51,453 nt of DNA, from contig QPGO01000035.1 of the NCBI GenBank assembly GCA_008632985.1, positions 607,899 to 659,351 on the forward strand, read 5' to 3'. This DNA comes from Psammoneis japonica. Its lineage: Eukaryota. Under the pieces are notes generated by a model, which made no database searches, was not told the DNA's origin, and worked only from the letters and a program-made list of their open reading frames with translations. Below, one piece after another: positions 1-47,894 of the stretch. A program made the translations under genes and the position numbers. Each line of letters begins with the position of its first letter. The first letter of the stretch is position 1.

Positions 1-1698
1 CGCAGCCAGTCGTGATGATCCAGAGGAATCCCCTGCAGAAGTAGAAGTTGCTTTCATGTTGCTTTTGTATGACTTGTTTCGGATTTCAAAGAGGAGTGTC
101 GTCTTTTTGTGTTTGCGATTTGTGTTGTGCAATGCATGATCTGGGATCGCATCGGTCGATTTTTGGCGCGTGTGTGAGATTATGTGGTCTCCAGTACACT
201 TCTCTACGCATACGAGAGACTGTACTGAAGCGGACGTAAGAAAGAGCGAACCCAAGATAAAATGTAAAATATTAAATCTTGCATAATACTTTAGAGTATC
301 CGTTTGAAGAGTCCTAAGTAGGTTGTATGTGTGAGACATCTTCGGCAGCAGGCCGATGAGAATGACATCATTAGCGGGCGGCCGTGTTGTTGAGCTGTCA
401 TCGTGCGCGCGCGCAGTGCGAACACGGTTCGGAGGATGGATGGACGACAGAGAGCGCGAAAAGAGCAGAGCAGACGCGCAAGCAGCAAACCCTAAAACGA
501 TTCTCCCACAGCAAACAGCCTCGCATGCACACTGTGCAAAATCTTCAGCATCACAAGTTTGCTGATGATGTGCACATGGTGACCACCAACAAGGTTTTGT
601 CAGTCCACCGACAGTGTGACACAGACTGCACATGAACGATGCCAGACCTCTCCAGGTGGCCGAGCAGATCTCTCTGAGATCTGCCTCTCATTCTCTTCTG
701 CCAGCACTCATGTCATCACAGTCCCAGTGCTTGGGGAGTCTTTCAGACCTCCATCATCATTGACCTTCGGCATTCTGTCAGGTTGTGGCCTTGTGTTGTG
801 CCGCTGAACTCTGCACCACGCTTTCTGTTTTGATTCATTTGTTTTGTGAGCCGATTGAGCAAGCGCCTCATCACCTGTTCCCGAAACAGTTTTTTCCTTG
901 CTTTCCTGGCATTTTTCACAATTGTAGAAACACACCAGATTTCCACGTGTGCATGACCAAAATGCCACCACCAAGTCCAACCATGGCGTCTCCGAGCAGT
1001 GCAAACCCTCCTCCGACGTCAATTGCAGAGATCTGCTGTGAGTTCCAAGCACACAGTGCTGTGCCTCATCTCCACACATCCCTCAATGAGCTCCATGCAG
1101 ACACCAGATGTGATCTGGACCCATTTTTTGATGATTCAGAGCATGATGCTCAACTGAGGAAGGATTTTGTGGACCTGTTTCGAGATTGTCTCATCAACGA
1201 AGTGATCCCACCTTGAGCAGTTGTTCCTGCAGACATGCAATCCATCAAGATGATCCTTGATCAAGCTCAGCTTTGCATTGTGAACCCAACAAGGCCTCAA
1301 ATGAGTTGCCCAACCACTGAGAGAAAGAGGGACCACCAGTTCTGTCACCTGCTGCTGACCCACCTCTTTCTCTTGAGATGACCATGGACAGTGCAAGCTC
1401 TCTGGCATCTCCCAAGAAACCGGATGTTCATGCTCTGCCAGACAATGACCCAAGTCCACCATGTTCAGAGCAGGGGAGGGAAGAAACTGCCTCTCACAAT
1501 CCTGATCCGAAATCCTTGGAAAAGGGGAGGGAACCACCTTCTCATGGCAGTTCTGCTGCAGAATTTGATCTTCACTGACAGATTTGCTTCCAGAGGATGG
1601 TCTTGCCGCCATCAACTCTGTTGGGATCACTCCTGTCATGCCAACCATTGCCTTTGCTTCTGACATGGATCCTTTTGACTGCAAACCTGTTCAGGTGA

Positions 1699-2169
1699 AT
1701 GCCGCGTCATTTGCCCCCAATGAATGCTTTTGCTGACATTGCGTGCACAGGTGAGCATGAGCTTCTTCACAAGCACCAGGATTTCACACCGGAGATTCTG
1801 TGCCTGCTTGCTGTCAATCCTGTTTTAGGACCAGAAGCAATCCCTGTTGGATTCAGATGCCTCCATGTTTTGGCAGAGAACCCCAAGGCCACGTGGCGAT
1901 TCGCGCTCATTGTCATCCAAAGATTTGTTCCACCCTTGTTGATGAACGGTTGTTGCTTTGCACCAATGGCAAGCAATGAAAGGACTGCACCGTTGATTGT
2001 GTCCTCAAGTTGCATGGTTTGGGCACCTGCAAGTTTGTGGCATGCCATCAAGTGCACTGAAGTCAGGACATTGTCATTCACAGACAATTGGTCAATGGCA
2101 AGTGTTGCACTCACCCGCTTGTGCCTCCCACGTCTGACGACAGTCTTGACAAATCAATTGCGCAATTGA
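1699..2169 (+). pseudogene. Copia protease-region remnant (frameshifted)
   Basis: NAFADIACTGEHELLHKHQDF resembles the D-S/G-G-A-x-x-x-C-T-G...LLH-x-Y protease segment of Copia pol, with Y->H changes. It lies just upstream of the integrase. Confidence 0.55.
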
Positions 2170-2173
2170 AAGA

Positions 2174-3230
2174 GTGGATCCTTCCTTTGCAGATGAGTGT
2201 GAAGCGGCATCAGCATTCATGATTGAAACAAGTCATGTGTGCCAACACAACCTCCTCCATGAAGAATGCAAGATGATCCCACAAGCACACCAAGACATCC
2301 CTTTTGAGGAACATGCCAACAAGTTGATGCCTGTTCAGCCCCTCAAGGCTGACACTGATTTTCTTTTATGGCATCAACGACTTGGTCACCCAAGTGACCA
2401 TTGCTTGCATCATGCTCATGAACGTGCCGATGGTGTTCCAAAACTTGCCCATGGTGCCTCTCCATTGGATGCATGTCCTGCTTGCATCCATGCCAAACAG
2501 ACAAAGGAAGCCACTGGCCCACATTTTATGATGACTGTGACTGAACCCTGCCAAGGCCTTGCTGTTGACCTTTCTTTCTCTGGCATCCATTCCAAGAATG
2601 AAGAATGCTCCATTGACTGTGCAGGTTTGAATGGCGAAACTTGTTGGATCACTGTCTACGACCATGCTGCAAAACATCTCTGTGGCACCACTCATGTTTC
2701 CAAGGCCATCCCTTTGAATTGGCTTTGACGATTCCTGGAGGAACACTCACCAAAATGTCCAGATGAACATGTCTTTCTGGATCAAGGTGGCAAGTTCTGT
2801 TGCAATCCAGCAGTTTGGCAACTTTTTGAGGACAACTGTGTAATTTGTCCCACTGGAAAAATGCTTCAAACCAAAGTGGAACAGGAGAGAGGAGTCATTT
2901 GACCATCGCCAATGTCATCCAAGCAATGTTGACAGGTGCAAATTTGCCCCATCAAGTTTTGGCCTCATGCTTTTCACCACTGTTTGTGAATCAAGAATGC
3001 CGCTCCATCAAAGGGTCGAGTTGCAGCTCCAATTGCTCTTGCTGCGGGTGAGAAGGATGATTTTTCCACCTTGCACACGTTTGGTTGTTGTGTGCAGGCT
3101 CAAGCATCCAATCATTGGAAGGCAAAGTTCCACCCCAACTCTCGACACCACCAAGAACGTCCTTTGGTGTGATCCAGAGACATCTCGTGTCAAGACTGCC
3201 AAACACGTCCATTTTGATCAGGGGATGAAT
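2174..3230 (+). pseudogene. Copia GAG-pre-integrase/integrase remnant
   Basis: LLWHQRLGHPSD, CPACIHAKQ, QGLAVDLSFSG, GLNGETCWITVYDH, then FLDQGG after an in-frame TGA at ~2726. Several frameshifts follow. Confidence 0.85.
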
Positions 3231-4007
3231 GATTTGGGTCATGACTCTATTTCCCCAAATGTGATTCATTTGGAACGCACCCAGGCTGGTGATCCTGTCC
3301 CAGCTGAATCCAAGGAAACTGCTGTGGAACAGTTCCAGTTTGCTGGCAACCCCTTTGCTGAGACTGTCACCCACACGATGAAAGGACTGTTCCATGACTC
3401 TGCCTTTGGCCTGTCCCTGCATGCCGATGACCCATGTCAACGTGTCCATGTTTTGGACATTCAATGTGGCACCCCTGCTGCTTGCTTGTTCTCCTCCTTG
3501 AAGGCAACTCGCAACAAGACATTGGGTGCCTGCATCATCTCCATCAATGACCACCATGTTTTCACCACTGACAATGCTGTCAACAGATTGCAAGCCCTGC
3601 ATTGCTCAGGCAAGGCACATTGTTTTGAGACCAAGTTTGCTCCTGAACATTGTCTTGACTCCAAGGCTTTACAACATGCATTGGTTGAGCACAGTGTCTT
3701 TGCTCCTGCACCGGACCCTGATGAGGAACATGCACTGGATTTGACTCCAGCTGACACTCATGCAATTGTGGCAATTTGCTGCCCTGGCACTGACTTCTCT
3801 GGTTTTGATGACATTGAGGAACCCCCAACGATCCATGTTGATCATGACAATGGTGTTGTGAACCTGCATGCTGTCTCCTCTCATGTGATTGCCCCAGAAG
3901 AACAGACGTTGGGTGCTTTCACATGACACAGCCTTGAGAAGTTGCCTGCTTGGCCAGATTGGCATGCTGGTGAATTCCAGCAATTGGATTGATTCCATGA
4001 GATTGAC

Positions 4008-5305
4008 ATGTTTGGTGCACCCATCAAGCAACCAAAGGATGCTGTGGCACTGCGTCCCCACTGGCAGTGCAACCTCAAGAATGATGGAACACATTGTTCC
4101 TGGCAATGCTTTGATGGATCTTCTCATGCGGCTCCCATTGTTCTTCACCGTCTTTGCTCCACTCATTCATTTTGTGTTGAACAACCTGTTCAATGGATGT
4201 TTTTTGCCCTTGCTGCCACTTTGAGTTGTCAGACATGCAGTGGCAATGCAAGAGACACATGTGTGTGCTCCCTGGCACCTTCTCATCCCACACACGTTGC
4301 AACTGATGAAGCACACGTGACTTGGTGCAAGTCTAGATTTGGAGTTAAGTTGGGTCAGAGCACGGTTCTTCCAATGCAACATGCCCTCCAAGGACACCCA
4401 GAAGCCGGTGTGCTTTGGGAGAATCACATCAACAGCATTCTCTTTGATGTGAATCTTTTGTTCCACAACACTGCTCATGACAAGTGTGTCCACTCTGCTG
4501 CATTTGATGGACACAAGATTTTGCTGTTGCAACAAGTCAATGATTTTTTGATTGCATGCCCTGATGAAGCTGTTGCTCTCAAGAATTGTGACAAGATTGG
4601 CAAAGCTCTGCAACTCCCTTTGGAAGCCAGTCCTCCCTTCAAGCATCTTGGTCTTGTTGAGGACTTCAATGGTGTGGATGTTCACCAGTGTGATGACTCT
4701 GTTGGCATTGCCGTCCATGCTCACTTGGTGCTTGTCTCCCATGGATGGATTAAACCTGCAGCAGCTGAACCTGCTGCTGACTACAAGGCAACTCCTGCAC
4801 CCGTCGAGTCCATCCATGAACTCTGCACCACTGTTGGTCCTGTTGAGGGTGCCTCAAAGCATGCTGAATTGGAGGAAGCAGCTGGTTTTGGTTGTTGCAC
4901 TCTGCTTGGAGAATTGTTGCATGCACATGTTGTTTGCCGTTTAGATGCAGGTTACGTCATCACTGCCTTGTCCAAATTTTCTACTTGCCCTGTCATGTTT
5001 CATTGCAATGCCCTCAAGGGTGTTGCCAAGCACCTGCAACACACCAAGCATTGAGAACTCAACTGCAAGAAGCCCAGGTTGGACCCTGGTTTACCAAAAT
5101 GTCCGCATGAAAGATTGGCCGATGACCCCACTTTACCACCTTTTCCTGCTGCTGATTGTGAGCATCAACTCCTTGCTTTTCTGGATGCTGCATGTGAAAA
5201 TGACCTCCACAACTGCCTGTCCACTGTGGGACATGGTTGCATGCTGGCAGGTGCTGCTGTGTCATTTTGATGCAAGACACAGTCGGCTGCGGCTGCAAGT
5301 TCCAC
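4008..5305 (+). pseudogene. Copia reverse transcriptase plus N-terminal part of RNase H
   Basis: LRPHWQCNLKNDGT, ALQGHPEAG, HDKCVH (from HDxCxY), LQQVNDF, DFNGVDVHQ, TLLGELLHAHVVCRLDAGY. The RNase H remnant ends abruptly at ...AAAASST (~5305). Confidence 0.9.
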
Positions 5306-6660
5306 GTGCACTATGCTCGAAGAACGAGTGCAAACGAAAGTAGAACGAAGTTCGAAAAGTGAAAATTATGAGATTAAATTTTACTCTGTGATTTTTGGTT
5401 TCTCCGAATGAGTTCTCAATGGCCTAAAGCTTCTGTACTGCTTCTACAGACAAAAGGCCTTTCGGAGAATATATTCGTGACAACAGATTGTCCGGATACG
5501 ATTGCTATTGACACGTAAGATGTCAACATCGTCAATCGATCGTATTTGCAATTCTCGACATCCGATCAACTCTGTGTGATCGTTCTGTCCTTTGTACGCA
5601 TCCACGACTGTGGTACGATTGACATATAAATAATATATATAATCATAAATATGTATATAACAGTCGCATACTGCATTCGCCTCCCTAATTGCACATTAGA
5701 GTCATTTGTTAAGTGGATTATTCGACGGACATTGACAGTGTCAATAATGTCTCCACGTTCACTGTATTGTGCCATTAGCAATGACTGTTGTTGTTTTAGG
5801 CCAGCATACACAGGGCCGTTTCATTTTCCAAATGTCTTTCGAGAGTATCATGGTTTGTCTCATGTTCATTTGGACACACGGACCAATTGTCCTGCTGTTC
5901 TTTCATGGTATCGATTGTACATAGCATTTTGCCCAGTACTCGATGTACGCACTTAATTGGCGTTCACTTACTTACTTCTTGTGGATTTCGTGTAGTTTGG
6001 CGGGCTTTACTTTATATGCCATATTGCTCTGCTGCACTACCACGTTTCATAAGTAATAATTAACGATGGTCAAGGATATGACCATTTCGTCTTGATGATC
6101 AATCCTGTGATGGTTATGAATTCAATTATGGATTTTTTGTACTTCAACCATCTATCAGTTGGGTTTTAATCGTTATTTGGACGTTTCTTTTTGACATACC
6201 GGTGTTATTTTGTCATTCCGAAGGCACTGGTTTCGTGCACTAAATGTCCATTTTTCTTTTCTTTTCTTTTTCTAGATCTTTGGCACATCTCGTGTGTCGA
6301 CATGATGTATATTTTAATGTCTTGCCTCGTACATTGTACAATACAAAACCGTACGGGTGTTGTGAGATTGTCTTTTGCCAGTGTGAAGTGGATACGTATA
6401 ATGTATACCAATCTGTCACTGTTTTTTCCTAAATCGTCCTTTAAAAAGGCGATTTTATCCTTATGATGTGAGCATTTTTCGATCTCGCTCGCCTCCACGA
6501 AAAGTGTTCGTATGATATGTCGCGTCCGACAATTTGGAGGGAAATGTCTTTATCCCGTTTTAACGGTAGGACATTGTCGTAGGATTCAATTTTCTATAGT
6601 AAGTCGGCTGATCGCGTCTATCGCGACGATGTTCGCCTTGCCCTCGCTGTGTTTTAATTC
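5306..6660. other. AT-rich island with normal TpA content and no recognisable ORF
   Basis: TA dinucleotides are abundant (e.g. ATATAAATAATATATATAATC near 5624), unlike both flanks. The short ORFs do not resemble any family I recognise. Confidence 0.6.
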
Positions 6661-6679
6661 GGGACTGAACAACAAACGA

Positions 6680-9600
6680 GCAAGCAAACAAGTGGGAGCA
6701 ACTCAGCCACCTGAGAGGGGGTGGTGGTGTTGACAAGCAGTGCAAGAATGTTGTTTTCACTTTTGCTTTTGAAATGTGGGAAAGCTTTGCACTGCAAGCT
6801 AATTTTGTGTCCTCAACAGCTTGTTTCAACAACTTGCCTTGGCCCCCCACATGACACGATGCAGCATGTGTTCTTTTTTTCACATTGCAGCTCTCACACA
6901 ACAGCTTTCTCACTGCACTCAAGCAACCATGTGGCACCCATCAACTCATGGGACATCAGAGGGGGGAACAATTTGATTGGGGGGGCAATTGAAAAATGTG
7001 GGGGCCCGTCTCTCATTTTCCACACAGGTTTTGGGTTTGTTGCATTTGGTGTTCTGTCACATTTGATGGGGGCAGCCACACTGGCTTTGTTCATTTGCAA
7101 TGCAGGTCCTTCATTTAAAATGTGGGTCAATGACTTGGCCCCAATTTTTGCTGTTGCATTGACGATTTCATGCTGTTGCATTTTTCTTTCTCCCTTGATT
7201 TGCAGATCCGTTGTTTGCTCCCCCCCCCCCTCTCCTTGGTCGACTCTGTCCATGGTCATTTCCACATTTTTCCACTTCAGTTTAAATTGTCCTTGCCAAA
7301 TGTCAATTTAAACAGATGTCTGTTGCTGTGCATCTGATGTCTTCCTTGCTGTCTTCCTCCATCTGCATCTGATTGCCCTCTCCTTCTTGGTTGTCTTCCT
7401 TGCTGTCCATGCATTCCAAGAACTCTTTGGACCAAACTTCATTGTACACATCCACTGCCTTGCTCAATCTCTTCTCCTGTGTCTGTTTTCCTAACTCCCT
7501 GCACCTGGTCAGTCTGCCCTTGTCCCATCCATGACTCCTTTTTGCTGCTGAACCCTTCCCATTGCTGCATTTTGCCTCTGGAATGATCTTCTCGTTTTTT
7601 GCCACCTTCAACTCCTCCTTTGTCTTGCCATGCATGCATGTCCACTTGCCCCAATTGTTTTCCAAAACTCACAGGCCAAGTGCCTCATTGCTTGCCAATG
7701 CCAACTTGTTCAAGCAATGTCTTGGTTGATTTGAGCCAATGTTTCCACATGGTCTTTCCTGCCATGATGGGCAGGAAGTGGATGATGAAATGTGTCTGGG
7801 CCATCATGCAGTCCCTGCCCTCTTGCATTTCTTTCAGAGATGGCATCTTGGCTTTGTCTTCTGCTTGTGGGTTCTTCTTGTCATGATCTGGATGTGCCCA
7901 TGCATTTGCAACACATGGGGCAATGTGTGCCAGCAGTGCATTGTTTCACTGTCTTCGTGTCACCCAACCACTCACTGAAAAATTCTTTCTTAAGTTCCCC
8001 ACTTGTGTTGTTCCTCTTTCTTGTCATCTGCCTTTGCACCTCATCCTTGACATGTCCCAAATGTGCACTCTCTTTTCTTTGGGCATGTTGAGCTTGGATG
8101 GCACCATGTCTGCCACTCTTCCATCGCTGTCATTCAGGGCCTTGTCAATCAGAAACTTCCTGTGCTGTCTGAACAACATGTTCTTGCAGCAGTTCTCCAA
8201 CACAATCTTGTCTTGGTCATTCATTTTTTTGTTGCATTGCTTTTTCTTTCATCATTCACTCATCATGTTGTCTTGTTCTTCTGTTGATGATGATGTGACA
8301 GTCCCTCCCGTGATCACCGAACTGCCACTTTGTTGCACCACGGTTTCAACTGGTGCATTGTTCTGCACAATGTCTCTTCCCTGCGCCGTCCATGACAAGC
8401 CACAACAGTTGTCAGTTGAGTGCAACCGCCTTGCATTTCACTCATTTCAAACTTGCCTCATCCCTCTCCAGGCTTTGGTGTGGTCCAGTCCCTGCTCATT
8501 CAAGGTTTGTCATGGTGCATTTGTGCTCTTACACAAAAAAGTGACATTTCTTTAACGTGACCTGTTGAGAATCAAGTGGCAGCCTCTGCTGCTGTCCACT
8601 TGTGTGCCTGCCCACCCCACACTGGTTCCTGCACATTTTTTACGTCTGTGTTCCTTTTTTAAATTTTTGGCGTGCATTCCTGTTGGTCAAAAGTGTCAAA
8701 TAAAGTTGCAGCTTCACCCGGACTTCTGTTGCTGATGCACACTGATCCCATGTGTGTGTGATGCACTCCATCCCCTCAAACCGTCTGTGCCTCCATCCCA
8801 CTGACATCTGCACTGTTGTGGTGCATGATCAACCATGTTCTGCAGTGCACTGGAGTGCACACCTTACACACCACCTGCCCAGAGCAATGGCTGAGTTTCA
8901 TTCCATCCAATGAAAATTCTCTCTTCCTGTGGATTCCCTCACCAATGACAGCGTGTTCTTGTCCAGAATGTTGTGAAGCCACTCCATGCAACCATTCTCC
9001 AGAGGACCCCAGTCTGGGTTTGCCACTGCAAGGTGCAGCATGCATGCTGCATGATTGTCACCCAGAATCAACACCTTGGCACATTCATCCATGTCAAGCT
9101 TGTCTTGTTCACATGTGATGACATGCACATCTGGGTCCTCTTCTGACTTTTTTCCAACCAATTTTTGAAGCACATCCTGTGCACTTGATGGTTTGGCACA
9201 TCCTCACAATCAAGTGGCTCAATGCAGAGCTCATGGAGGGCAAGGCTGTCCAGGTGAAAATCCTTCCTCTCCATGTGTGGCACTTTGCCTCCTGTGGTCT
9301 CTTTGTTGCTTGGCAAGAACATCTCGAGAACCGCTTTCTTTGTTTCTTTTGATGATTTTGCAACAGATTTGAGCAGTGTCCTTTGTTGGCATTTTGCTGA
9401 TTTGTTCACGTCCAAGGGGCACTGGCCCTCCGCTCTCAGTTTTGCAATCTTCTCTTTGATTTCCTGGAGTTCCTTGTCTCTTGCCTCCTTGCCAACAGGG
9501 GCACATCGTGAGTGGAAAATCTGTTGCCACTCCTTTGACCAGCTGTTGGGATTGGCATCATCCGGGATGTCCCAGGTGTCGTCTGTGGCAAATGTTGCAT

Positions 9601-12130: not shown

Positions 12131-12239
12131 AGGCATTGATTAAATTTAGCCGGGCTGAAGGGGTCATGCAGGTGCCACTGAAGTCAGGCAGGGTGGTGTG
12201 ACATCAACGCAAGCTGGTCAAATTAAATGCAGGTTGTGG

Positions 12240-37227: not shown

Positions 37228-37674
37228 GGTGTGTCTCAATTTGAAATGTGTTTCAAAACATGATGACGGAAGTGTTGTCGCATTGTTTTTGTCTCCGCGG
37301 AGGGAGGATCATCCCACGGCAATCTCAGCGCGAGTTCTCGCGTAGAAGTGCGTCACGTGCCGTGCCAGCTCGTGCATTTGAATTACACGGACACACAAGT
37401 GCGGCAACGATGAGAAGCAGGCCGAGATTCAAAACAAATTTTGTCGCCCAAAGGCGTCTTGTCATTTCAACGTGTCTGCGTGTCTGTTTAAAATGACTTC
37501 ACGCGTTGCTCCATGCGCAGGTAGAGGTGGCACGCCGCATTTGAAAATTTCGCGCGCACAGAGGGCGCGACGGCAATTTTACGCATTCTGCACACGTCAC
37601 AGTTTGGCTTGGAAACGCGACATCTGGTCGAACCCGCTGCAAGCAAGGTTGATGTTGCCACAAGGTTGGGTGCG

Positions 37675-38544
37675 ATGAACCATCGTCACAGAAGTGTTGG
37701 GGAGTTTTGTCTTCAAACGGCTCCAGACTCCGCGTTCCAGAGCAGGCATGTCTCCGGAGACGGAAGCGGATCTTCACACGGCGGTGAAGTTGGCTTCGCT
37801 TTGAGCAGCGAAGTGTTTTTGAACGAATGCCTTCTTGGCGTGAATCACACCTGCGACACATCTGTCGACATGGGCGGGGGAGTTGCCGGACCCAGCATCG
37901 GGCTCAAGTTACTTCGTCGCCGTTGCACCATGGTGAGCATCAAGGCCGACCACGATCGTCACCAAGAGGCTGTACGTTGGGCTCATTGTGCTGGCCTTTG
38001 CTCGAACGGCGGGTTAGAGTTGATCAACAAGTCATTCTTGGACGAGAGGCTGGCTCCTTTGTGGAAAAAGAAAGGACTCAAGGTGTTCTTCAACAACTGC
38101 AACTCCCGCATGGTCGACGACAAGAACACACAGCAGAAGGCAGAGGCGATGCTTTCGAAGTTGTGTCGTGCTGGGACCGTGGTGGTGGCGCTAGATCCGC
38201 TGTTCACGTCGCACGCGGGAGAGTGGATGTGCGAGTCCTTCACGGCGGATTGCCATGATGGCGACTTTTTGTGGCACAGCGGAGACGTGAAACATCTCGT
38301 CTTCCACAAGTGCACCAAGAAAGAGGAGACTTCTCAGTCAACCAGCCAGCACATGCGACGTCCCACTCCGACACACTTGGAACGGAAGTGTTTGCCCGTC
38401 GCGAAACAGCCAATTTTACTTAAGAACTCAACTGAACTGTTTTTTTACTGTCGCTGCACTGGACGTCACACGCTAGTTACTCTACTCAATTCGCCATTGC
38501 TTCACGGTGACGACAAGTTGTCGTCGGAGATGGTGCACACTTGA
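37675..38544 (+). CDS. Class I SAM-dependent methyltransferase, DOT1 (H3K79 MTase)-like; TpA-mutated
   Basis: Ordered motifs match DOT1's YGE / VDLGSGVG / GxE / GDFL / FVNNF / GxxIVSxxP: SHGGEV, SVDMGGGVAG, VSIKAD, KSFLD, VFFNNCN, AGTVVVALDPLF. The C-terminus may be read-through after stop-codon loss. Confidence 0.65.
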   Translation: MNHRHRSVGEFCLQTAPDSAFQSRHVSGDGSGSSHGGEVGFALSSEVFLNECLLGVNHTCDTSVDMGGGVAGPSIGLKLLRRRCTMVSIKADHDRHQEAVRWAHCAGLCSNGGLELINKSFLDERLAPLWKKKGLKVFFNNCNSRMVDDKNTQQKAEAMLSKLCRAGTVVVALDPLFTSHAGEWMCESFTADCHDGDFLWHSGDVKHLVFHKCTKKEETSQSTSQHMRRPTPTHLERKCLPVAKQPILLKNSTELFFYCRCTGRHTLVTLLNSPLLHGDDKLSSEMVHT

Positions 38545-38630
38545 AGAGACAGAGGAAAGCTGAGTTGCAATCGACACTTAGTTTGCTGAACATTTGCAAA
38601 TTTACACTGTACCGGCAAAAAAAAAACAAC

Positions 38631-39503
38631 TCAGTCTTCGTCGCTGTCCTGAAGCACCAAGTCGTCATCGACGTTCAGGTCAACTTCGCAGTTGAGCTCG
38701 ACATCATCGTTGGCCTCTTCTCCAGCTTCTTCCACCGGAGCTCCAATGAGACGACAGAGTTCCACAGGCAACGACCCCTCGTAGAAGCAACTGTGAAGTG
38801 AGTTCTTGTTTTGGGCACACCAACCGATGTGAAACTGACCACCTTCCTTCTGAAGCTCGGCAAGCGCCGCCTCGTTGCCGATCACTTCGGACCAAACAGC
38901 ATCCTTCATCCAGAAGAAGTCGTCTTCAATGAAGACCTCGGTGTTGTTCTCAGGGTCATCGTTGAGCTGCTTCGCAATGTGCTTCCCGAGGCCGCGCACT
39001 TTAGCATCGGTTGGGACTTCTTCGAGGAAGATGAAGAAGAGATGCACGGCGCAGTTCTTGGCGTTCGTCTGCAACTCGCCTTCGTGAACCCACCTGCCAG
39101 CGCAAGGGTGGAATCCGACTTGAACCACCCACGGAGTCCTGCTGCGAAGGTTGTCAAACAGAACCTTCTCCAACCAAACATTGGCCAAAAGGGGATTCTT
39201 GGCTTGGAGACGAAAAACGACGCCTTTCTTGCGGCCGACAGTGACGGTGGCGCAGCACAGGAGGGCGTCCTCATCGGAATGGCTGCCATCGTCAGAACCG
39301 GCGGATTTGGAAAGCTTGAACCCGTGCTTGGCAAGGCGGTCTTCCGGTTTAAGGTCGTCGTCGGTCAAGCCGTTGGTCTTGCGGGGCGGACTTAGTTTCT
39401 TCAACAGAGCATCAGAAAACTTCGTCTTTGCCTTCTTCTGTTTGGTTTCAGCGACTTTGGCTTTCGCAGCTGGGGAGGTCGTTGTGTTTCTTTTGCGTGC
39501 CAT
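38631..39503 (-). CDS. Hypothetical protein (290 aa; basic N-terminal tail, globular core, acidic C-terminus)
   Basis: Uninterrupted, protein-like frame from MARKRNTT to LQDSDED*. No family recognised. Confidence 0.7.
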   Translation of the reverse strand: MARKRNTTTSPAAKAKVAETKQKKAKTKFSDALLKKLSPPRKTNGLTDDDLKPEDRLAKHGFKLSKSAGSDDGSHSDEDALLCCATVTVGRKKGVVFRLQAKNPLLANVWLEKVLFDNLRSRTPWVVQVGFHPCAGRWVHEGELQTNAKNCAVHLFFIFLEEVPTDAKVRGLGKHIAKQLNDDPENNTEVFIEDDFFWMKDAVWSEVIGNEAALAELQKEGGQFHIGWCAQNKNSLHSCFYEGSLPVELCRLIGAPVEEAGEEANDDVELNCEVDLNVDDDLVLQDSDED

Positions 39504-40046
39504 CAAATCAGTTGGAGAGAAATTGTGGGAACAAAAAGTGCGATCGTTCAGAAGTGCCAAGAAAGACCCAGCAGAGCTGCGTGCATCATGCCAAGGAGAA
39601 CTGGCAACATCAGCAACTAGATCCAAACACGTCGAACTGCAACAAGGCAACCTTCCAGGTGTCAGCACTTGCAAGTGGTGCATGGATTCAATTTGAACAA
39701 AACAGGTGCAAGGATCGGAGCACGCAAAGTCACACTGAGTTCACTGAAAATGCGTAAAATCACATGCAATTCCGTCCATGCTTCGTGTGTGTTTCAGCCG
39801 TCACTGCCGCGCGGCCATCGCGCATGAAATCTAGTCGCCAAACGGTCGACGCCATCGCTGTCACCACTGCACCGGCAGTTAGCTAAGGTGGGCCCATCAC
39901 CCATTTGGAGGATTCGCGCGCACTTTGGAAACACGAATGACGTCAATCGTGTTGCCATTGCCACATGACCAACTCAACTGCCCCGCCACTTGTTAAAGCG
40001 TGATTCTGCGGAATTTACGTAAAGCTGCGCCCACCACCAAGATTGC

Positions 40047-40150
40047 CGAAACAACTTGAACAAGATCCGAATCTTGCCCCATGGAATGTTCAGAGCAGAT
40101 GGTCGAAACAACTTGAACAAGATCCAAATCTCATCCCATGGGATGTTCAA
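40047..40150. repeat. 57-bp tandem duplication
   Basis: CGAAACAACTTGAACAAGATCC.AATCT...CCCATGG.ATGTTCA at 40047 and 40104 (KQLEQDPNLxPWxVQ twice). Confidence 0.9.
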
Positions 40151-40304
40151 CGTCGACGAAACTAAGCAGGACATCGCACGTCTGGCACGAAGAAGGACGT
40201 GGGAGGAACGCACACGTCACTCTTCCGTCGAGGTGAAAGAGGCACACTTTCGTCTCACTTTTTTGTGACAGAACCTTTGTGCAAAGGGAAACGAAAAGCA
40301 TCCA

Positions 40305-40631
40305 NNNNNNNNNNNNNNNNNNNNNNNNNNNNNNNNNNNNNNNNNNNNNNNNNNNNNNNNNNNNNNNNNNNNNNNNNNNNNNNNNNNNNNNNNNNNNNNN
40401 NNNNNNNNNNNNNNNNNNNNNNNNNNNNNNNNNNNNNNNNNNNNNNNNNNNNNNNNNNNNNNNNNNNNNNNNNNNNNNNNNNNNNNNNNNNNNNNNNNNN
40501 NNNNNNNNNNNNNNNNNNNNNNNNNNNNNNNNNNNNNNNNNNNNNNNNNNNNNNNNNNNNNNNNNNNNNNNNNNNNNNNNNNNNNNNNNNNNNNNNNNNN
40601 NNNNNNNNNNNNNNNNNNNNNNNNNNNNNNN
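40305..40631. other. Assembly gap
   Basis: Run of N. Confidence 1.
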
Positions 40632-40960
40632 GCAGCTCTCACAGAGACCTGATCGCACAGGTTGTGAGAACACGACACAATGCTGCGGTGATCGGGTGGC
40701 ACCGACGCAGTTCGTCAAGCAACTGATTGACTCGGCTGCGGTGACTGGACAGCGCCAGTCGCAGTGCTCACAGCGACCTGATTGCACAGGCTGTGAGAAG
40801 ACGACACAGTGCTGCGGTGAACGGATGGCACCGATGCGGTTCGTTGATCAACTGGACAGAACCACTGCGGTGACTGGACGACACCAGTCGCAGTGCTGCA
40901 GGTGGTGAGAAAACACACATCACTGTGGTGATTGGATGGCACCGATCGCAGCTTCATGGT
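40632..40960. repeat. 129-bp tandem repeat array (two full copies plus a partial one) abutting the gap
   Basis: CTCACAG.GACCTGAT.GCACAGG.TGTGAGAA.ACGACACA.TGCTGCGGTGA at 40638 and 40767; partial copy ~40905-40955. Confidence 0.9.
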
Positions 40961-41039
40961 GATCGCACTGAAAAAACAACCATTTTTGCTGAGTGGCTTC
41001 TTGAAATTTGTTGAGTTAAAGTGTCAGCTTAAATTAAAA

Positions 41040-44000
41040 ATGGACGAGGCCAACTCCCGTGTTTGCAACGCAATCAACAGAAAGTTTGAGATGCTTTGTC
41101 TACATGGAGATGGAGAATTTAGACCACACGCATGTTTGGTCTGTGATGTTCTGCTGAAACCTAGAGAAGTTTGCTGCTTGCCGCTCAAAACATTGGAATC
41201 AGCAAGAAACTTGCTCACCCCTTCAGACTGGAACAGCGCATCTGATCGTCTCAAGTCCTGCTGCACTGTAGAGCATGAAGATGCTGATTGGATCAAAGAC
41301 CTGCCACTTTCTCCCCACGCCCAATGCGCAGTGCAGGAAGACAGACGATGCGTCGACGGATTCACTTGCTGCAGCGAATGTCAAAGAAGCCTGGGAAGAG
41401 CCGTCATGCCAATGTGCGCAACAGCGAACAACTGCTGTTTCGGTGCCCCGCCGCATGAACTGTTGTCTCTAACCGAAGCCAGAATTGGCAATGCTCACAC
41501 CAGTGAAAACATGCGGACACTGCTTCAGCCACCTTGGCGGCAAACAGAAGAAGCTTCAGGGAAGTCTGACGTGCTACAAAGTCAAGATACAAAGCATCGT
41601 AAGAACTGTTGTGCACTTCGACGCACTGAATTTACATCAGAATGTGATTGCACTGATGACTGGAAAGATGACTCCGGAGCAAAGACAACTTGCGTGTTCA
41701 AAGAACAGAATTAGGACGCACTGCATGCCAAGGGCGATGGAATGGCTGTTGCACCACAACCAAGAGTGGGTGCACCAACAGACAAATCTAGACGAAGTCA
41801 GGCGTAATCTGCGGAATCCCGCACTTGTCGACAGCACCAGCAAAGAAGAAGGAGAAAATGCGAGTGTTGAGACCTCAGAGTCATTTCACATTTGCTTTCC
41901 TGATGGAACCATGTCTCCTGCGACCGGTGGTCAGCGCAACCTGGACTGCTTCAAAGATCTTGCACGAAGCTGCTGCCAACGGATTTGATTTAGAGGTGCA
42001 AGCACAGTTGTCTAAAGAATCTGCGAGTGATTTCAAAGGCAACAACTTCATTGACGCGTGTCTGCTGCAGTTTCCTTTTGGCAGAGGAGGAATCAATGAG
42101 ACGAGAATGAAGAAAGACGGAAGTCTTGCAGACAGCACCAACCTTGCACACTGTGCCGACCACCACGGATTTCCCAGCCTCACTTCCACGAGCAGCTCTT
42201 CGTGTTAACATGCTGCAACTTGACAATGAAGCAAAGGATGCTGCAGAGCGCAGGGTGGAAAGTCAGGGACAAGAATCAGGCTGCACAGTTTGCAAACGAA
42301 CTGACAGTGGACGATGTGGACAGAGCTGTTTGTGATCGCAACTTGGGCGAGAGAAGAGATTGTGGACTCGGGCACCACTTTTTGCGTGCACTCGACGTTG
42401 CATCTGCGTCTCTGCCACACAGNNNNNNNNNNNNNNNNNNNNNNNNNNNNNNNNNNNNNNNNNNNNNNNNNNNNNNNNNNNNNNNNNNNNNNNNNNNNNN
42501 NNNNNNNNNNNNNNNNNNNNNNNNNNNNNNNNNNNNNNNNNNNNNNNNNNNNNNNNNNNNNNNNNNNNNNNNNNNNNNNNNNNNNNNNNNNNNNNNNNNN
42601 NNNNNNNNNNNNNNNNNNNNNNNNNNNNNNNNNNNNNNNNNNNNNNNNNNNNNNNNNNNNNNNNNNNNNNNNNNNNNNNNNNNNNNNNNNNNNNNNNNNN
42701 NNNNNNNNNNNNNNNNNNNNNNNNNNNNNNNNNNNNNNNNNNNNNNNNNNNNNNNNNNNNNNNNNNNNNNNNNNNNNNNNNNNNNNNNNNNNNNNNNNNN
42801 NNNNNNNNNNNNNNNNNNNNNNNNNNNNNNNNNNNNNNNNNNNNNNNNNNNNNNNNNNNNNNNNNNNNNNNNNNNNNNNNNNNNNNNNNNNNNNNNNCTC
42901 ACAACAGTTCAGAAGATCTGCAGCACGGAATTAATCTGCAGCGAGGACTTCAGCACTAACGCGTTGCGTGAAGCATTCGATCATGACTGCACAGTGCCAA
43001 AAATGTGTCGCACCTCTCCAAAAGCAGCAGACGACCAACAGCTAAGAAACCTGAGGCACAAAGACGGCCAGCAGTCGAAGAACGGAATGTTTGCTTGTTG
43101 TCGTCACTGCACCAAGTGCTGGACAAACGTCGAGTTTGTAGAAAGCTTTTTACAGTCACGGCACCGTGCACCTGGCCTGACTCGCCATCCAGACAACCAT
43201 GCAAAGCGACCAAAAGCAATGTGTGCACAACACCAGCGAAGTGGTCCGCAAGGGACAACAGAGGCATGTGTGCCGGACGCAGCTTACAACCATCACATGC
43301 ACGTTACGAAGTCGTGTTTTCCCAAATGCGCAGAGTTGCGTAAAATGCGCAAAAAAACCCCACACGAGGAACTGGACGTGCTGTCAAGGAAACGGAAACG
43401 AGAGGAGCTCAAACTGGGTGACTGCCATCACAGGCAACCAGCTGCTTCGTGTCCAAATAATTTGGCAAGGAACGCAGATGACACTCAGATAAAGTGGTTC
43501 AGCTGGGATGGAACTTTTGCGTATCGGCACGTGAAGGAAGTTGTTCCGAAGAGGAGAAAGTGTGATGCTTTTCAAAACGTGTCGTGCCCTGCAATGAGCA
43601 GATCAAAACTGACATGCAACACAAACATTGCTTTGTTGATGCCTGGACCGTCTGCTCAATGCACGATTGAGCACATCCTAAAAGACACCCAGAAAGATGA
43701 CACTGCATCGTACGATGAAGTGCTTCGAACTACAAACAGGACAGCGACGGAATTGCGGAAACACGCATCTGATGCATCGGAAGCAATCAGATGTCTCACA
43801 TGGGGTGCTCACTCGCACAACAAGACGAACATCATTGGACCACCACTTGCGTCTTACACAACAAGGAATGGAAGCCATTTCATCGAATCTCATTTGACCG
43901 CATGGTGCCCCTTGAAAGACATTGTCAGCACACTAGAAAGAGACGAAGTGTCTGCGACTGTAGCCCATTTTGGCGACACACCGTTCTTCCAATGCCAGGC

Positions 44001-46687
44001 CTTGCACCACCTGTGTCGTCCAACAGCACTGGAGAATCTCAGTCCATTTGCGTTTTTCAGTGAATGCGAAGTTCTTCGCAACACAAGGAAAAACGAACAC
44101 GGCATGATGATGTTCGACAACAGAGCGCACAGGCACCCGTCTTGCAATTCAACGAAGAATGAGTTTCTTCAAGGTGTCAGACAGCGACAGCAACCGCGAT
44201 TGTCAAAAGCACTTCAGTGTGATTTTCCTGATGCAGCCAAGTTTGGCAGTTGCCTTGTGGATCCGCAGCAACCAACAACACTGGACAAAGAATTGTGCTG
44301 CAAGTTGGCATTGGCCTTGTTTGCGCCTTGCAGAACAATGACGGAACTCAAACCAATGACCCACACATGCCTGCGTGAATTCCAACTCTCCGCAGCAGCC
44401 GGTGTCATTGCAGAGGAAAACTTGAACTTCTTGCAGAACCTGCAGGATGCCAAGTCCAACTGCCTTCGTCTCAAAAGTGCATCTGACGATCTGCAAAGAA
44501 AGACGGAGCAATTTAGACCTGCTGACGTTGCGTTTGACTGTTGCGAAAGTGACGAGGAAGAAGGTCTTTCAGGCGCCGTTCAGGGTCAACTGCTGGATGC
44601 ACTCTTGGAAGAAATGGCAGAGCAGCCAGAAGACGATGACATTGGGTTGAGCGACCAAGCAGTTGTTCCTGCGCATTTGAGCGGCAAACGTGCAAGACAG
44701 AAAGGTTCACACATGGGTGGTTGCAAATGCTTGGCAGACATGCACACTGACCCACCAAACGAGGAAAGCCAGGTCAATGAACGACAACTTTTTGAGAATC
44801 TAGAGGGCGGCGATGACACCGACGAGGAAGACCAGAATGAAGGAGTGCAACAACACATCCACAGCAGACCACTGTCAAGAGACGACATTGTTCGAGTGAC
44901 ACTGACTAGAACGCAAAGAACAAGAAGGTCGTTTGAGGACATGACAGGTTTGGAAGAACACGTCGATGTACGTCAAGCAAACGGATCTGCAGCAAGTGTC
45001 GTAGACTGGGCTAGGAAAGCAAGACTGGACAGGCAACAGCAGCGTGCCTTTGAAATTCTAGCAGGAACCTTTGTGCTCACTTGCTGCCAAGACGCTCTTC
45101 AAGACGAGACGTCACGCAATGGACTCAACAGGAGAAATGGCAGACACGAATTCGCAACAAACCTTCGCCGATTGAAGAAACTCGTGGAAGTGCAAAGACG
45201 CAGAACGTTGCAACTTGTGTGTTTTTTACATGGTGCAGGTGGAAGTGGCAAATCAACCACAATGGACCTCGTCGTGGAATGCGGAAGAGAGCATTGCTCG
45301 CTTGTTGAGCAGCCGTTCACAACAAGCACAATCAGAGTGACTGCACTGACCGGAGTGGCTGCGACTGTTCTCAAAGGGGACACAATCCACCGAGTTGCAT
45401 GCCTCATGAGAAGAAAGCAAACAACCGAAGAGCAAATTGAAGCATGGTCAGACACGAGACTTTTGGTGGCAGACGAGATTTCTTTTGCAAGCAAGAGAGA
45501 ACTAGAAAAACTCCATGAGAATTTGACAGTGTTGAAGAGCGAATTGAGCAAGCCGTGCGGTGGCATGAACATTGTTTTCGCAGGTGACCTCAGGCAACTA
45601 GAACCAGTCGGAAAAGGAGTGAAACCACTGTGCAAAGATGCGTGTCCCGAGTTTCACGAGTGGATCAACTGCCACATGGAACTTCGTGGTGTGCACAGGT
45701 TTAAAGACGATCCATCATGGGGAAAACTGCTCAAGAGATTCCGCACTGGTGAGATTGCAGTTGACGATGTGGAGCACATCAACGAACGAGCAGTTCAGAA
45801 TGAAGATGATCTGCCCAGTGACCTCCGCTGTGCTGCGCACGCAAATAAGGACAGAGATGCAATTGACACTGGCCCATTCGAAAAAAGAGCAAAAACACTG
45901 CATAGAAGAGATGGAGACGTCCTTGACTCAATGTTGATTTTCAGTGACGACTTGCAGGTGCAGAATGGCACGAGACTCTGCCAACCATTTCCGGTTTGCA
46001 ACAGCTTCTGGAACAACTGTGGTGAAGGAGACGTTGTCATGCAATCAGGAAGAATGGATCCAGTCTTACGAATTTACAGAAGATGCAGAGTCATGACACC
46101 TTTCAACGAAAATGCAGCAAACGGTCAAGCAAACGGAACGCAAGCCACTGTTGACAAGGTCGTTCTCAAACCAGGACAGGAACCAAGACTGGTGACTTTA
46201 GACAACAACATTGGCATTCCTGCTGCTTGCCAGTCAGGTAGACCACGTTGCATTGGAACACTGCAACAAAAGCATCGACCCCGCGAAGTTTTTAGTTGAG
46301 CCAAAAACAAATGCTTTCAGGGCTTGCATCGCCAAGCCCAGCCCAATTTTAGAAGAAGGCGACAAACAAAGGCACACTTTCCAACTGAAGGCAACCCAGC
46401 TGCCGTTTGTCATCAACAATGCCACTGCAGGGCACAAACTGCAAGGGAGTGGAGTCCCGCAGTTGTTTGTACACTCTTGGAGCTACACTCAGAATTGGGT
46501 GCATGTTGTGCTCTCCAGAGTAAAGACCAGAGAAGGGCTGTTCATGCGAAAGCCACTGAGCAAGGACCTGCGAAAATGCAAGGTCCCAGAAGGCTACGAA
46601 GCCTTGATGAGACTCATGAAGGAGAGAAGCGCCACGCATTTTTCTCAGCAACAGCACGCAGAAACAATGTGTGCGCAAACAGATTAG
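41040..46687 (+). mobile_element. Helitron Rep/PIF1-helicase polyprotein, frameshifted and hypermutated
   Basis: N-terminal CxxC motifs and MPMCATANN..GAPPHELLSLTEA; LLQFPFGRGG; Rep-region HHMHVTKSCF, CNTNI, QCTIEHILK. PIF1 motifs: GAGGSGKST, ALTGVAATVLKGDTIH, ADEISF, GGMNIVFAGDLRQLEPV, HRFKDD, ANGT, TAGHKLQG, VVLSRV. Frameshifts near 41480, 41960, 42170 and 46230. Confidence 0.92.
42423..42897. other. Assembly gap (probably hides the Rep HUH motif)
   Basis: Run of N inside the Rep region. Confidence 1.
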
Positions 46688-46881
46688 GATGCTCAACCAC
46701 TGTGCAACTGTTTGGCGACCCCAACCGTAAAAATGCGGAAATTTCGTAAAATAAAATGTTTCGATTAGATCAGCACATTGCGCAGAAATCTACACATGCG
46801 TCACACAACGTCGAATGGATTTTAACCAACAAACCAAGAAACGCGAACGCAACCGTCACAGAAAAGCAGCAATGAGAAAAC

Positions 46882-47281
46882 ATGGATTTGCAACAACAAA
46901 CAAAGAAGGCAGACGAGCCAAAGAAAACTGGTGAGGACAAGAAAAAGGTGCAGACACGTGCGGAACTTCTTCAGTCATTGATGAATGAGGAAGACGAAGA
47001 GGAGATTACCTTGGAAGAAGCAAGAGCGGCGTTTGACCTTGCTTCGGGAAATTTTGATGTCACTTCTGCACTTGTGCAAGACAACACGACAGTGGACAGT
47101 CATCATGTGGAAACAACGGTCGCCCAAGGATGATTCAACCATGGAGGAGCTAAAGGCAGCATGTGCAGCGGCGATTCCACAGCGGTCGGGGAGATTTTTC
47201 ACCGAGGAGGAGATGGCGGAGCAGGAGAAGGAGCAAGCAAAGTCCCTTCAGAAGAAGCATGGCCAGAAAGAATGGAATTGA
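46882..47281 (+). pseudogene. Small acidic ORF fragment(s) downstream of the helicase
   Basis: MDLQQQTKK...TVAQG* followed by MEELKAACAAAIPQRSGRFFTEEE...; TpA-depleted. No family recognised. Confidence 0.4.
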
Positions 47282-47580
47282 GCAAATTGCAAATGACATT
47301 TGGCAAAGACAACCGCATCAATGCGCAAAATGCACACACATGGACTTTCACTTGAGCCGCCGCGGATTGAGTGTGGCCACAATGGAGGACCAACTGTTTG
47401 GCAAAGAAACTGCAACAATGCGTAAATTTCGCACATTTCCACACTCACTTAATCCAACGCAGCTTGCCTTGGACAACATCAACATGCACAACTGGACAAC
47501 ATCAANACAGCCTCATGAAACCTCACAGAAGACAGAATGGTCAGAAGCAAAACAACCAGCACCACGCTCTAACGCATGTT

Positions 47581-47624
47581 GGTCATGTCGCGTGGGTCGC
47601 GCAAAAGTGCGCACCGAAATGACC
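47581..47624. other. GC-rich hairpin, candidate Helitron 3' subterminal hairpin
   Basis: GGTCGCGCA-AAAG-TGCGCACC (47595-47615) is nested in GGTCAT...ATGACC. It sits where TpA depletion stops (TAATTAATT at ~47636). Confidence 0.5.
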
Positions 47625-47894
47625 GTCATGTGTTGTAATTAATTCGAACGCCCGGCGCAAAATGCAGCAAAATGATTGGTGCAGGCAATCGTCATGGCTC
47701 TATTTTCTGACAGTAGCGAGGGCGGCAATCCAAAATCTTTCGGTTTCAGACTTCGATCTAGAGAGTTCCACCTAAAAAAGAGGAGGAACCAATTTGTTTC
47801 CCGCCATATCACGCGCAAGTGGATGATGATTCGCGCGGAGCCTCACATCTCTCCACCCTCGCTCAGCCGCGCAAAGCCAGAAAATCAAACAACC

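Follow-up and report, generated by a model that had tools for sequence, protein, structure and literature searches.

We analysed a 51,453-nt stretch of DNA (the window) of contig QPGO01000035.1, positions 607,899 to 659,351, deposited under the name Psammoneis japonica. The window alternates between two kinds of sequence, namely five blocks that are nearly stripped of the dinucleotide TpA and spared blocks lying between them. Within the depleted blocks, TpA was lost through a transition process that acted in place, on both strands, on mobile DNA only and close to saturation. These blocks are very probably relics of mobile elements hit by a locally addressed TpA hypermutation, which would be the same process as the one by which, according to the main text of a preprint, TpA in integrated viral DNA of Bigelowiella natans hypermutates de novo to TpG/CpA (Mettrop et al., bioRxiv 10.64898/2026.01.13.699255). 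A first-pass annotation of the window had proposed a TpA-targeted T:A→C:G process that acts in situ on several unrelated kinds of mobile DNA and spares host genes, and this proposal was supported throughout our analysis.

Over the whole window, the observed/expected (o/e) ratio was 0.23 for TA, 1.54 for CA and 1.59 for TG. TA o/e dropped to 0.05 in block 501-5250 (CG 0.26, CA/TG 1.70/1.92), 0.07 in block 6751-16000 (CG 0.14, CA/TG 1.78/1.83) and 0.06 in block 23001-33300 (CG 0.24, CA/TG 1.65/1.75). The remaining two depleted blocks had a TA o/e of 0.17 (33301-40304; CG 0.89, GC content 0.55) and 0.18 (40632-47600; CG 0.76), with CA/TG ratios of 1.34-1.67. The spared blocks retained values of 0.62 (1-500), 0.74 (5251-6750), 0.49 (16001-23000) and 0.58 (47601 to the end). 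This bears out the earlier reading that segments derived from transposable elements are TpA-depleted (block o/e 0.05-0.18), whereas a polyketide synthase (PKS) gene, a superoxide dismutase (SOD)-like gene, 5306-6660 and the region from 47640 to the end are not (0.49-0.74). Expressed as counts, TA made up 103 of 24,297 dinucleotides in the older blocks within 501-33300 and 129 of 13,400 in the blocks within 33301-47600. The spared blocks had 499 of 12,849, and both differences were significant by Fisher's test (p = 1e-133 and 4e-57, respectively). The same contrast was seen between open reading frames (ORFs): those of the Copia-like relic and the Helitron carried 5-10 TA per kb, while the PKS and SOD-like genes carried 36 and 26, so that the depletion is not shared by the single-copy host genes.

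The transitions between the two kinds of sequence were abrupt. TA density shifted within ~100 bp at ~500, 5300 and 6660 bp, at 15.9-16.2 kb, at 22960 bp and at 47.6 kb, and the borders that had been drawn in the first-pass annotation fell at the same changes in TA spacing. Counted on both strands, TAA and TAG together numbered 22 versus 262 for TGA in 501-5250, but 205 versus 283 in 16001-23000. This near-loss of TAA and TAG with retention of TGA leads to dense long ORFs in all six frames, and the stop-codon counts thus agree with the cause suggested earlier for the crowded ORF map. The GC content was 0.47-0.55 in depleted blocks, compared with 0.41-0.48 in spared blocks. By mass balance against the spared blocks, 33301-47505 had 29.2 TA per kb less, 3.3 CG per kb more and 26.5 CA+TG per kb more, while the three older blocks had lost 75.6 TA+CG per kb and gained 66.0 CA+TG per kb.

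Loss of conserved tyrosines and TpA-specific transitions

The Rep-helicase ORF of the Helitron was aligned with 51 homologues of at least 1000 amino acids among the best 60 of 150 listed from a total of 4350. Its Tyr content was 0.4%, in contrast to 2.5-4.6% in these relatives and a median of 3.3% over 235 relatives, which shows that the relatives are not equally poor in Tyr. With its N gap left out, 42100-46299 encodes 1240 residues, of which exactly 5 are Tyr, where about five had been estimated previously. At the 17 columns with conserved Tyr, the window carried Cys nine times, His three times, Tyr three times and Phe twice; the resulting ratio of 9:3 for Tyr→Cys to Tyr→His fits the preference for a 3′ pyrimidine that is described below. 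In contrast, the residue was kept at 264 of 325 other conserved columns (Fisher p = 8e-8), and conserved Cys (12/12), His (11/11) and Trp (8/8) were all retained. The catalytic Tyr pair, which is Tyr in 50 of the 51 homologues, reads Cys254/His258 in the window, and this Helitron copy is therefore dead. Six peptide motifs in which Tyr→His/Cys replacements had been read by eye in the first-pass annotation (HDKCVH, TCTRGSKQLDC, QCTIEHILK, WVHVVLSRV, FLSRHN and DDDNH) were all found at the implied places.

A total of 75 differences were recorded at conserved Helitron columns, 56 of which are explained by a single base change; the other 19 need at least two changes and were set aside. The 56 single-base changes consisted of 17 A>G after T, 5 T>C before A, 3 A>G or T>C elsewhere, ~8.3 C>T or G>A (7 of them CpG-type) and 22.7 transversions, the latter probably reflecting family divergence. 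Consequently, 22 of the 25 inferred A>G/T>C changes lay within TpA, in line with the enrichment that the first-pass annotation had predicted. For A>G alone, 17 of 18 changes followed a T, where 33% was expected (p = 9e-8).

Further evidence came from public Helitron proteins, 9 of 235 of which had a Tyr content of at most 1.2%. Tyr was replaced by His or Cys at 15 of 15 conserved columns in P0071 and at 7 of 9 in P0199, while six control relatives keep 14-20 Tyr. Comparison of P0199 with its Tyr-normal relative P0155 (65% identity) gave ratios of 9:0 for Tyr→His and 5:0 for Tyr→Cys. For the Tyr-poor protein P0231, an 88%-identical relative is encoded by positions 1-1827 of the metagenome contig L001, which has a TA o/e of 0.83. 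When L001 was taken as the unmutated state, 36 of the 52 single-step differences from P0231 were TA→CA/TG; 43 of the 52 were A>G or T>C, and 36 of these 43 lay on TpA. TpA half-sites had changed in 36 of 98 testable cases versus 7 of 406 for other A/T sites (p = 7e-22), with 19 T>C and 17 A>G among them. The footprint in environmental Helitron proteins indicates that the TpA process, or a similar one, left traces beyond this assembly. Environmental-assembly proteins with the Tyr→His/Cys footprint were P0071, P0199, P0113, P0231, P0079 and P0217.

The split direct repeats of the Ngaro-like element provided a view of non-coding DNA. Their two pairs were 76.7% and 86.8% identical, and identity rose to 91.1% and 97.5% after recoding into purines and pyrimidines; 40 of the 50 differing positions were transitions. 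In 338 bp we counted 9 CA↔TG doublets, compared with a mean of 1.0 and a maximum of 5 in 5000 simulation runs. Three direct TA↔CA/TG differences favoured TpA as the starting point. The B pair, with 4 doublets, no one-sided CpG loss and 1 shared CpG, also points to TpA, in tiny numbers. Together, the split repeats show decay of pyrimidine-purine (YpR) dinucleotides in place after the copies had diverged, without apportioning it between TpA and CpG.

Sequence context, CpG decay and copy number

Among surviving TpA sites, counted with both strands combined, a 5′ A (equivalent to a 3′ T) was present in 10 of 206 in the older blocks versus 292 of 998 in the spared blocks. ATAT occurred 0 times in the older blocks and 94 times in the spared blocks, and the best-surviving TpA contexts were TTAA and CTAG. 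In the comparison of L001 with P0231, in which the half-site considered is the A of the TpA followed by a pyrimidine (TAY) or a purine (TAR), changes had occurred at 27 of 56 TAY but 9 of 42 TAR half-sites (p = 0.011), and TAG was the least-changed context (2 of 13). A 5′-TAY-3′ preference is probable, with the adenine of TAT and TAC being changed more than that of TAG and TAA.

CpG dinucleotides showed a different distribution. Their depletion (o/e 0.14-0.26) was limited to 501-33300, and the ratio in 33301-47600 was close to normal (0.76-0.89). CpG→TpG/CpA decay, as is left by cytosine methylation, is thus a second and independent layer, which shares the TpG/CpA excess and can be separated from the TpA loss because 33301-47600 is TpA-depleted with CpG near normal. 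It appears to be slower than the TpA loss, or differently addressed. The first-pass annotation had dismissed CpG decay as an explanation; indeed, CpG decay cannot remove TpA, yet it co-occurs with the TpA loss in three of the five blocks.

Copy number was judged by depth in the contigs of a public sequencing run of the same organism, at a likeness of at least 90% and with ~58-60 as the single-copy depth. By this measure 23001-33000 is single copy. Summed depth reached 1609-4098 over 33.6-40.3 kb, corresponding to 27-70 copies, and 766-1235 over 20972-22972, corresponding to 13-21 copies. The latter repeat, which lies within an otherwise spared block, had TA o/e values of 0.26 and 0.45 in two 1-kb windows. 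As the single-copy region 23001-33000 is saturated and the repeat with 13-21 copies is affected in part, the footprint bears no relation to current copy number, and the most saturated relics are old and now unique. The earlier description of the process as repeat-restricted is not borne out, since 23001-33300 is at single-copy depth and, according to the main text of the preprint, the main target in B. natans is single-copy as well.

The window was also compared with the run contigs, for which 40 of 247 differences were listed. Of the 19 differences listed for the repeat at 20972-22972, 10 set CA or TG in the window against a TA of the family contig, while the reverse was seen at 1 of 19; 10 of the 14 transitions were TpA-type. 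This repeat appears to have been caught at an early stage, with mutation in progress. Among the 15 differences listed for the 33.8-40.3 kb family, the window carried CA/TG against a family CG at 9 and against a family TA at 2, and the remaining 4 positions formed 2 CA↔TG doublets.

Proposed process, effector and alternatives

The following course of events would account for these observations. Mobile elements would settle first and then lose nearly all TpA by TA→CA or TA→TG changes on either strand. The hypermutation would be locally addressed and end within ~100 bp of host sequence. Its effector would be an enzyme acting on DNA at 5′-TA-3′ that prefers an adenine followed by a pyrimidine, and it would be guided to silenced foreign DNA by a cue that follows element borders and does not spread regionally. 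CpG decay would have hit only the older, now single-copy blocks in 501-33300. Element-level addressing is suggested by the spared 1.4-kb island at 5301-6660, which sits between two saturated blocks and has edges that are sharp to ~100 bp on both sides, unless this island was inserted later.

As for the effector, a DNA adenine deaminase that converts A to hypoxanthine, which is read as G, is the most likely candidate, although we propose it tentatively. ADAR favours a 3′ G next to the edited A, whereas 3′ T and C were favoured over A and G here; that 3′ G ranks so low speaks against an enzyme with ADAR-like specificity. The discussion of the preprint likens the 5′ T to the U33-A34 setting in which tRNA adenosine deaminases act, and an ADAT2-like DNA adenine deaminase is the effector proposed there for B. 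natans, with ADAT2/ADAT3 homologues being named (10.64898/2026.01.13.699255). The first-pass annotation, which knew of no established mechanism and allowed for prior reports, was right on the latter count, as this preprint is one. It is conceivable, though still a speculative extension, that we are dealing with a dedicated, element-addressed DNA-editing defence with a nuclear TAY enzyme and borders of ~100 bp, which includes single-copy relics and reaches beyond one strain. If so, and if the window is not from B. natans, it would represent a second lineage with an A:T→G:C counterpart of repeat-induced point mutation (RIP).

Several results weigh against the proposed hypermutation of settled elements or narrow it. 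The evidence from the window is a footprint, and no mutation was seen to arise in it; the link to the B. natans process would rest on the identity of the signatures. The strand-symmetric data of the window cannot tell adenine deamination from thymine modification. At the repeat 20972-22972, the 10 changes from a family TA to CA/TG in the window were divided into 5 before a pyrimidine and 5 before a purine, with no TAY preference. Likewise, the ACA/TGT excess to be expected from editing at TAT did not show up in 33301-47505 (ratio of 1.02 to the spared blocks); the spared blocks reflect the original composition of a GC-richer element only poorly. The 9 CA↔TG doublets of the split repeats cannot be ascribed to ancestral TA. 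We dropped this attribution for the A pair, in which 2 CpG survive in both copies and 12 in only one of them, such that CpG loss predicts ~8 doublets where 5 were seen; the pooled CpG-derived estimate was 5.3 doublets. The 33.8-40.3 kb family has 27-70 copies, yet the whole 20 kb compared with the run contigs showed only 236 variable places. This is fewer than would be expected from an independent loss of TpA in each copy, and the depletion of this family may in part predate amplification. Finally, the family comparison is limited by the share of run-contig differences that was listed.

Thymine hypermodification would leave the same strand-symmetric footprint as adenine deamination. A TET/JBP-type dioxygenase or similar enzyme would convert T in the TpA of silenced DNA into 5-hydroxymethyluracil (5hmU) or a derivative, and the modified T would mispair with G, giving T→C or, on the other strand, A→G. 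In dinoflagellates, 5hmU takes the place of T with a preference for TpA sites, and it is more abundant on repeats. The window has elevated CA as well as elevated TG, the T>C and A>G changes between L001 and P0231 are balanced at 19 versus 17, and an A followed by a pyrimidine is a T preceded by a purine on the other strand, so that all window results fit equally. However, no enzyme or modification of this type is described for this organism in the literature consulted, 5hmU:A pairs are generally weakly mutagenic, and the candidate ORF at 35797-37308 on the minus strand has its HxD...H arrangement by eye only and sits in a mutated relic. On balance, we regard this route as unlikely. Conceivably, the bias could instead be a by-product of chromatin and arise in compacted, silenced DNA from damage specific to TpA, or from repair or replication that is prone to error, without a targeting enzyme. 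The CpG decay in the older blocks suggests methylated, silenced chromatin, and the activity in 11 of 15 B. natans lines given in the main text of the preprint could reflect an epigenetic state. Yet the near-total restriction to one dinucleotide, the 3′ base preference, the ~1000-fold excess over background stated there for B. natans and the sparing of the island 5301-6660 between two saturated blocks resemble enzyme specificity with element-level addressing, and a chromatin by-product thus seems improbable.

Two other explanations are contradicted more directly. RNA A-to-I hyperediting of element transcripts by an ADAR- or ADAT-like enzyme could become fixed by reverse transcription and re-insertion. 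Several blocks are retroelements, and a 5′ U/T is also what ADAR-type and tRNA-A34-type deaminases prefer, as the discussion of the preprint likewise has it; ADAR prefers U 5′ of the edited A (10.64898/2026.01.13.699255). Against this, one of the affected elements, the Helitron, is a DNA transposon, the split direct repeats, which are non-coding, are equally depleted, both strands are changed about equally, and the window copy of 20972-22972 carries derived changes against its own family. In addition, G was the least favoured 3′ neighbour here, as opposed to the 3′ G of ADAR, and by the account in the preprint's main text the B. natans mutations appear in situ in clonal lines, within DNA that is single-copy. 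Editing of transcripts is therefore largely refuted already and, in our judgement, highly implausible. The elements might also stem from a TpA-avoiding background in which active copies are equally poor in TpA and Tyr. Block edges do match element edges, and by a rough estimate the 33.8-40.3 kb family may have been partly depleted before amplification. However, the catalytic Tyr pair and 12 of the 17 conserved Tyr columns carry the one-step products Cys and His, and a Rep protein lacking this Tyr pair cannot work; the relatives contain 2.5-4.6% Tyr, a TpA-normal DNA relative (L001) exists for the Tyr-poor P0231, and TA persists in the 20972-22972 family contig at sites that read CA/TG in the window. 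An inherent composition is already contradicted for the Helitron and for this repeat, and we give it hardly any credence.

We return to TpA hypermutation of settled elements and its relation to the prior report. According to the main text of the preprint, 231 of 302 new point mutations in B. natans mutation-accumulation lines fell in one nucleocytoplasmic large DNA virus (NCLDV) insert and one virophage insert; 230 of these 231 were A>G or T>C, all 230 on TpA, at a rate of ~6e-7, which is ~1000-fold over background, with activity in 11 of 15 lines; overall, de novo mutation in the clonal lines runs at about 1e-7 to 1e-6 per site per generation (10.64898/2026.01.13.699255). Also reported for the genome are 324 TpA-poor coding sequences (CDS), among which reverse-transcriptase and DDE domains are over-represented, as well as 124 clusters of 1-kb windows low in TpA and high in CpA+TpG, although this long-term footprint was hard to tie to annotated foreign genes (10.64898/2026.01.13.699255). 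When the B. natans cluster thresholds, as they could be taken from the preprint, were applied to our window, runs of 4, 9 and 11 consecutive 1-kb windows resulted, and a fourth run of 3 windows (43001-46000) lay in the Helitron; this test used the mean of the CA and TG ratios and may differ slightly from the published formula. The PKS CDS had TpA and CpA+TpG values of 0.036 and 0.148, which are weakly compatible with the B. natans CDS means of 0.041 and 0.137 (10.64898/2026.01.13.699255). Both systems share TpA-only A:T→G:C changes on both strands, foreign DNA as the target with host genes spared, and long-term TpA depletion with CpA/TpG enrichment in clustered 1-kb windows. In contrast, the B. 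natans inserts are, by the preprint's figures, far from saturated (Rho_TpA 0.45, TpA 3.3% of dinucleotides), while o/e values of 0.05-0.18 were reached here, and the targets in which the process was seen live there are viral inserts, while the targets here are Copia-, Ngaro-like and Helitron relics. A full-text search of the literature returned no report of a TpA-erasing signature besides this preprint.

The process is likewise set apart from better-known systems. Fungal RIP changes C:G to T:A in duplicated DNA, mostly at CpA, creates TpA and lowers GC. It resembles the process described here in its inactivation by point mutations in place, its sharp contrast with genes and its dinucleotide-specific transitions on both strands; here, however, TpA is destroyed and GC rises, and the main B. 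natans target is described in the preprint's main text as single-copy. The first-pass annotation had rejected RIP, and rightly so, since a TpA o/e of 0.05-0.18 and the higher GC in the blocks are opposite to what RIP leaves. Unlike CpG decay, the process removes TpA and did so in 33301-47600 without loss of CpG. ADAR hyperediting of dsRNA from repeats and APOBEC3 editing of retroelements are similar in being deaminase-style, context-specific and aimed at selfish elements. They act on RNA or single-stranded cDNA and reach the genome via retrotransposition, whereas a DNA transposon and non-coding repeats were mutated in place here, and APOBEC yields C→T, not A→G.

The process itself is not new, having been in print since 2026 for B. 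natans in the preprint. What is new is the saturation in Copia-, Ngaro-like and Helitron relics, single-copy ones included, and the same Tyr loss in public Helitron proteins; the 5′-TAY-3′ preference is a probable further novelty. None of the words trinucleotide, CpG, Helitron, retrotransposon and flanking occurs in the main text of the preprint, and the TAY preference and the separable CpG layer are for this reason counted as additions. An inactivating A:T→G:C hypermutation that strikes a single dinucleotide mirrors both fungal RIP and APOBEC editing, and its effector would amount to a naturally occurring editor of adenine, or of thymine, in DNA that recognises a defined motif. The window pictures the end state, with unrelated element classes stripped of TpA, catalytic tyrosines dead and sharp borders to host DNA, and the 3′-pyrimidine preference is a feature that any candidate enzyme must reproduce. 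Because Tyr, Ile and TAA/TAG stops have been rewritten, such relics escape profile searches; they also crowd six-frame ORF maps, so that the annotation of such genomes needs a TpA-aware step. Recoding into purines and pyrimidines, by which transitions are removed, is useful for finding repeats in such DNA.

Elements and genes of the window

The features are collected in Table 1. The first-pass annotation had counted four unrelated orders of transposable elements. Of these, Copia and Helitron were confirmed by sequence and Ngaro was supported by its repeat layout only, while the LINE (long interspersed nuclear element) was not confirmed.

Table 1. Coordinates, strand and supporting evidence of the features in the window
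Feature	Position	Strand	Evidence
Copia-like relic	501-5300	+	gag_pre-integrs 36.2 bits (cut-off 28.4) in 2150-2725
Spared AT-rich island	5301-6660	.	TA o/e 0.74, CG 1.19, GC 0.41
Unclassified degraded block (earlier label 'LINE')	6700-16000	-	Saturated for TpA and CpG loss
AMP-binding + type III PKS ORF (host, spared)	16533-20363	-	Pfam
Mid-copy repeat, partly TpA-depleted	20972-22960	.	Contig depth and family comparison
Saturated block upstream of Ngaro-like element (earlier label 'GT31 cargo')	22961-25073	+	TA 0-2 per 250 bp
Ngaro/DIRS-like element	25074-33810	+	Split direct repeats, order A1...B1-A2-B2
Split direct repeat A1	25074-25297
Split direct repeat B1	33217-33337
Split direct repeat A2	33435-33670
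Split direct repeat B2	33689-33810
High-copy element (earlier label 'Helitron cargo')	33811-40304	.	TpA-depleted, CpG intact
Helitron relic, dead Rep/helicase	40632-47600	+	PIF1 54.6 bits
DUF6570	41473-41985	+	Pfam 22.8 bits
Rep-helicase ORF of the Helitron	42901-46296	+	Homology
Cu/Zn-SOD-like gene (host, spared)	47895-48467	+	Sod_Cu 42.8 and 72.8 bits, two exons

The Copia-like block is saturated for both TpA and CpG loss. Besides gag_pre-integrs, RVT_2 scored 21.2 bits in 3993-5051, which is under its cut-off of 31.6, and no pair of long terminal repeats was found, also after purine/pyrimidine recoding. The island that follows had no Pfam match. The LINE label for 6751-16000 was not confirmed, as the ORFs tested gave no Pfam match at E ≤ 10 and no PDB match; the motif TCTRGSKQLDC lies at 14067-14099 on the minus strand, and heavy mutation may conceal LINE endonuclease and reverse transcriptase domains in this block.

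The repeat at 20972-22972 had no Pfam match. The block downstream of it (22961-25073) is single copy (depth 57.8) and carries the motif DDDNH at 23550-23564. Its GT31 label, given to 23022-23978, found no support from homology, from PDB or from Pfam matches up to E 10. Ngaro/DIRS elements are defined by the split-direct-repeat layout A1...B1-A2-B2 together with a reverse transcriptase and a tyrosine recombinase, and the layout is present here. Pfam and homology searches gave no match to a reverse transcriptase or tyrosine recombinase in the Ngaro-like element, and its ORF at 30127-31041 had no homologue of 535-2000 amino acids. Near the 5′ end of this element, a ~165-bp tandem duplication (25569-25912) matched at 89.8% after purine/pyrimidine recoding; in plain letters, 80.6% was reached over 62 bp only. 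The run contigs covering 22853-32845, at single-copy depth, deviated by ~0.3-1.1% from the window, for instance by 24 letters in 2292 bp, and of 7 listed differences 3 were CpG-type and 1 TpA-type. In the PKS gene (16530-20363), 99% of sampled 31-letter words were common with the same run. The hypermutated block seems to diverge faster than the PKS gene between assembly and run.

Apart from SET, the five long ORFs of the high-copy element had no Pfam match. For the SET label, the motif FLSRHN was confirmed in place, while the Pfam SET match remained below threshold (E 0.006). This element also contains a 99-bp tandem duplication at 36926-37105. Its ORF at 35797-37308 on the minus strand (504 amino acids) shows, by eye, the HxD...H spacing inside a mutated relic and gave no Pfam or PDB match. 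An AlphaFold model of 35797-36480 on the minus strand, predicted from the single sequence, had a mean pLDDT (predicted local distance difference test score) of 33 and was set aside.

The Helitron had 111 homologues, the best with 44% identity, and most of them combine Helitron_like_N, PIF1 and DUF6570. A Pput_2613-like deaminase match in its N-terminal ORF (E 0.034, 14.4 bits versus a cut-off of 25) was taken as chance.

Both host genes are spared. The SOD-like gene has one GT-AG intron at ~48103-48191 (~89 bp). Set against the canonical metal-binding His motif, several of the usual His positions read otherwise by eye (GITVNVYGD, RMVGDLGN), and judging by these residues the product may be inactive as a dismutase. 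The PKS ORF is an intron-less frame of 1277 codons that joins acyl-activating and type III PKS domains (AMP-binding 68.5 bits, Chal_sti_synt_N 37.1, Chal_sti_synt_C 32.5). Its Tyr content is 2.3%, and the depth of 60 in the neighbouring contig corresponds to a single copy. A word-indexed search among proteins of 702-2235 amino acids revealed no relative. Just upstream of this frame, 20502-20693 is AT-rich and very dense in TpA, with 25 TA in the 250-bp bin 20501-20750, and a 10-bp tandem repeat at 21070-21110 adjoins this stretch.

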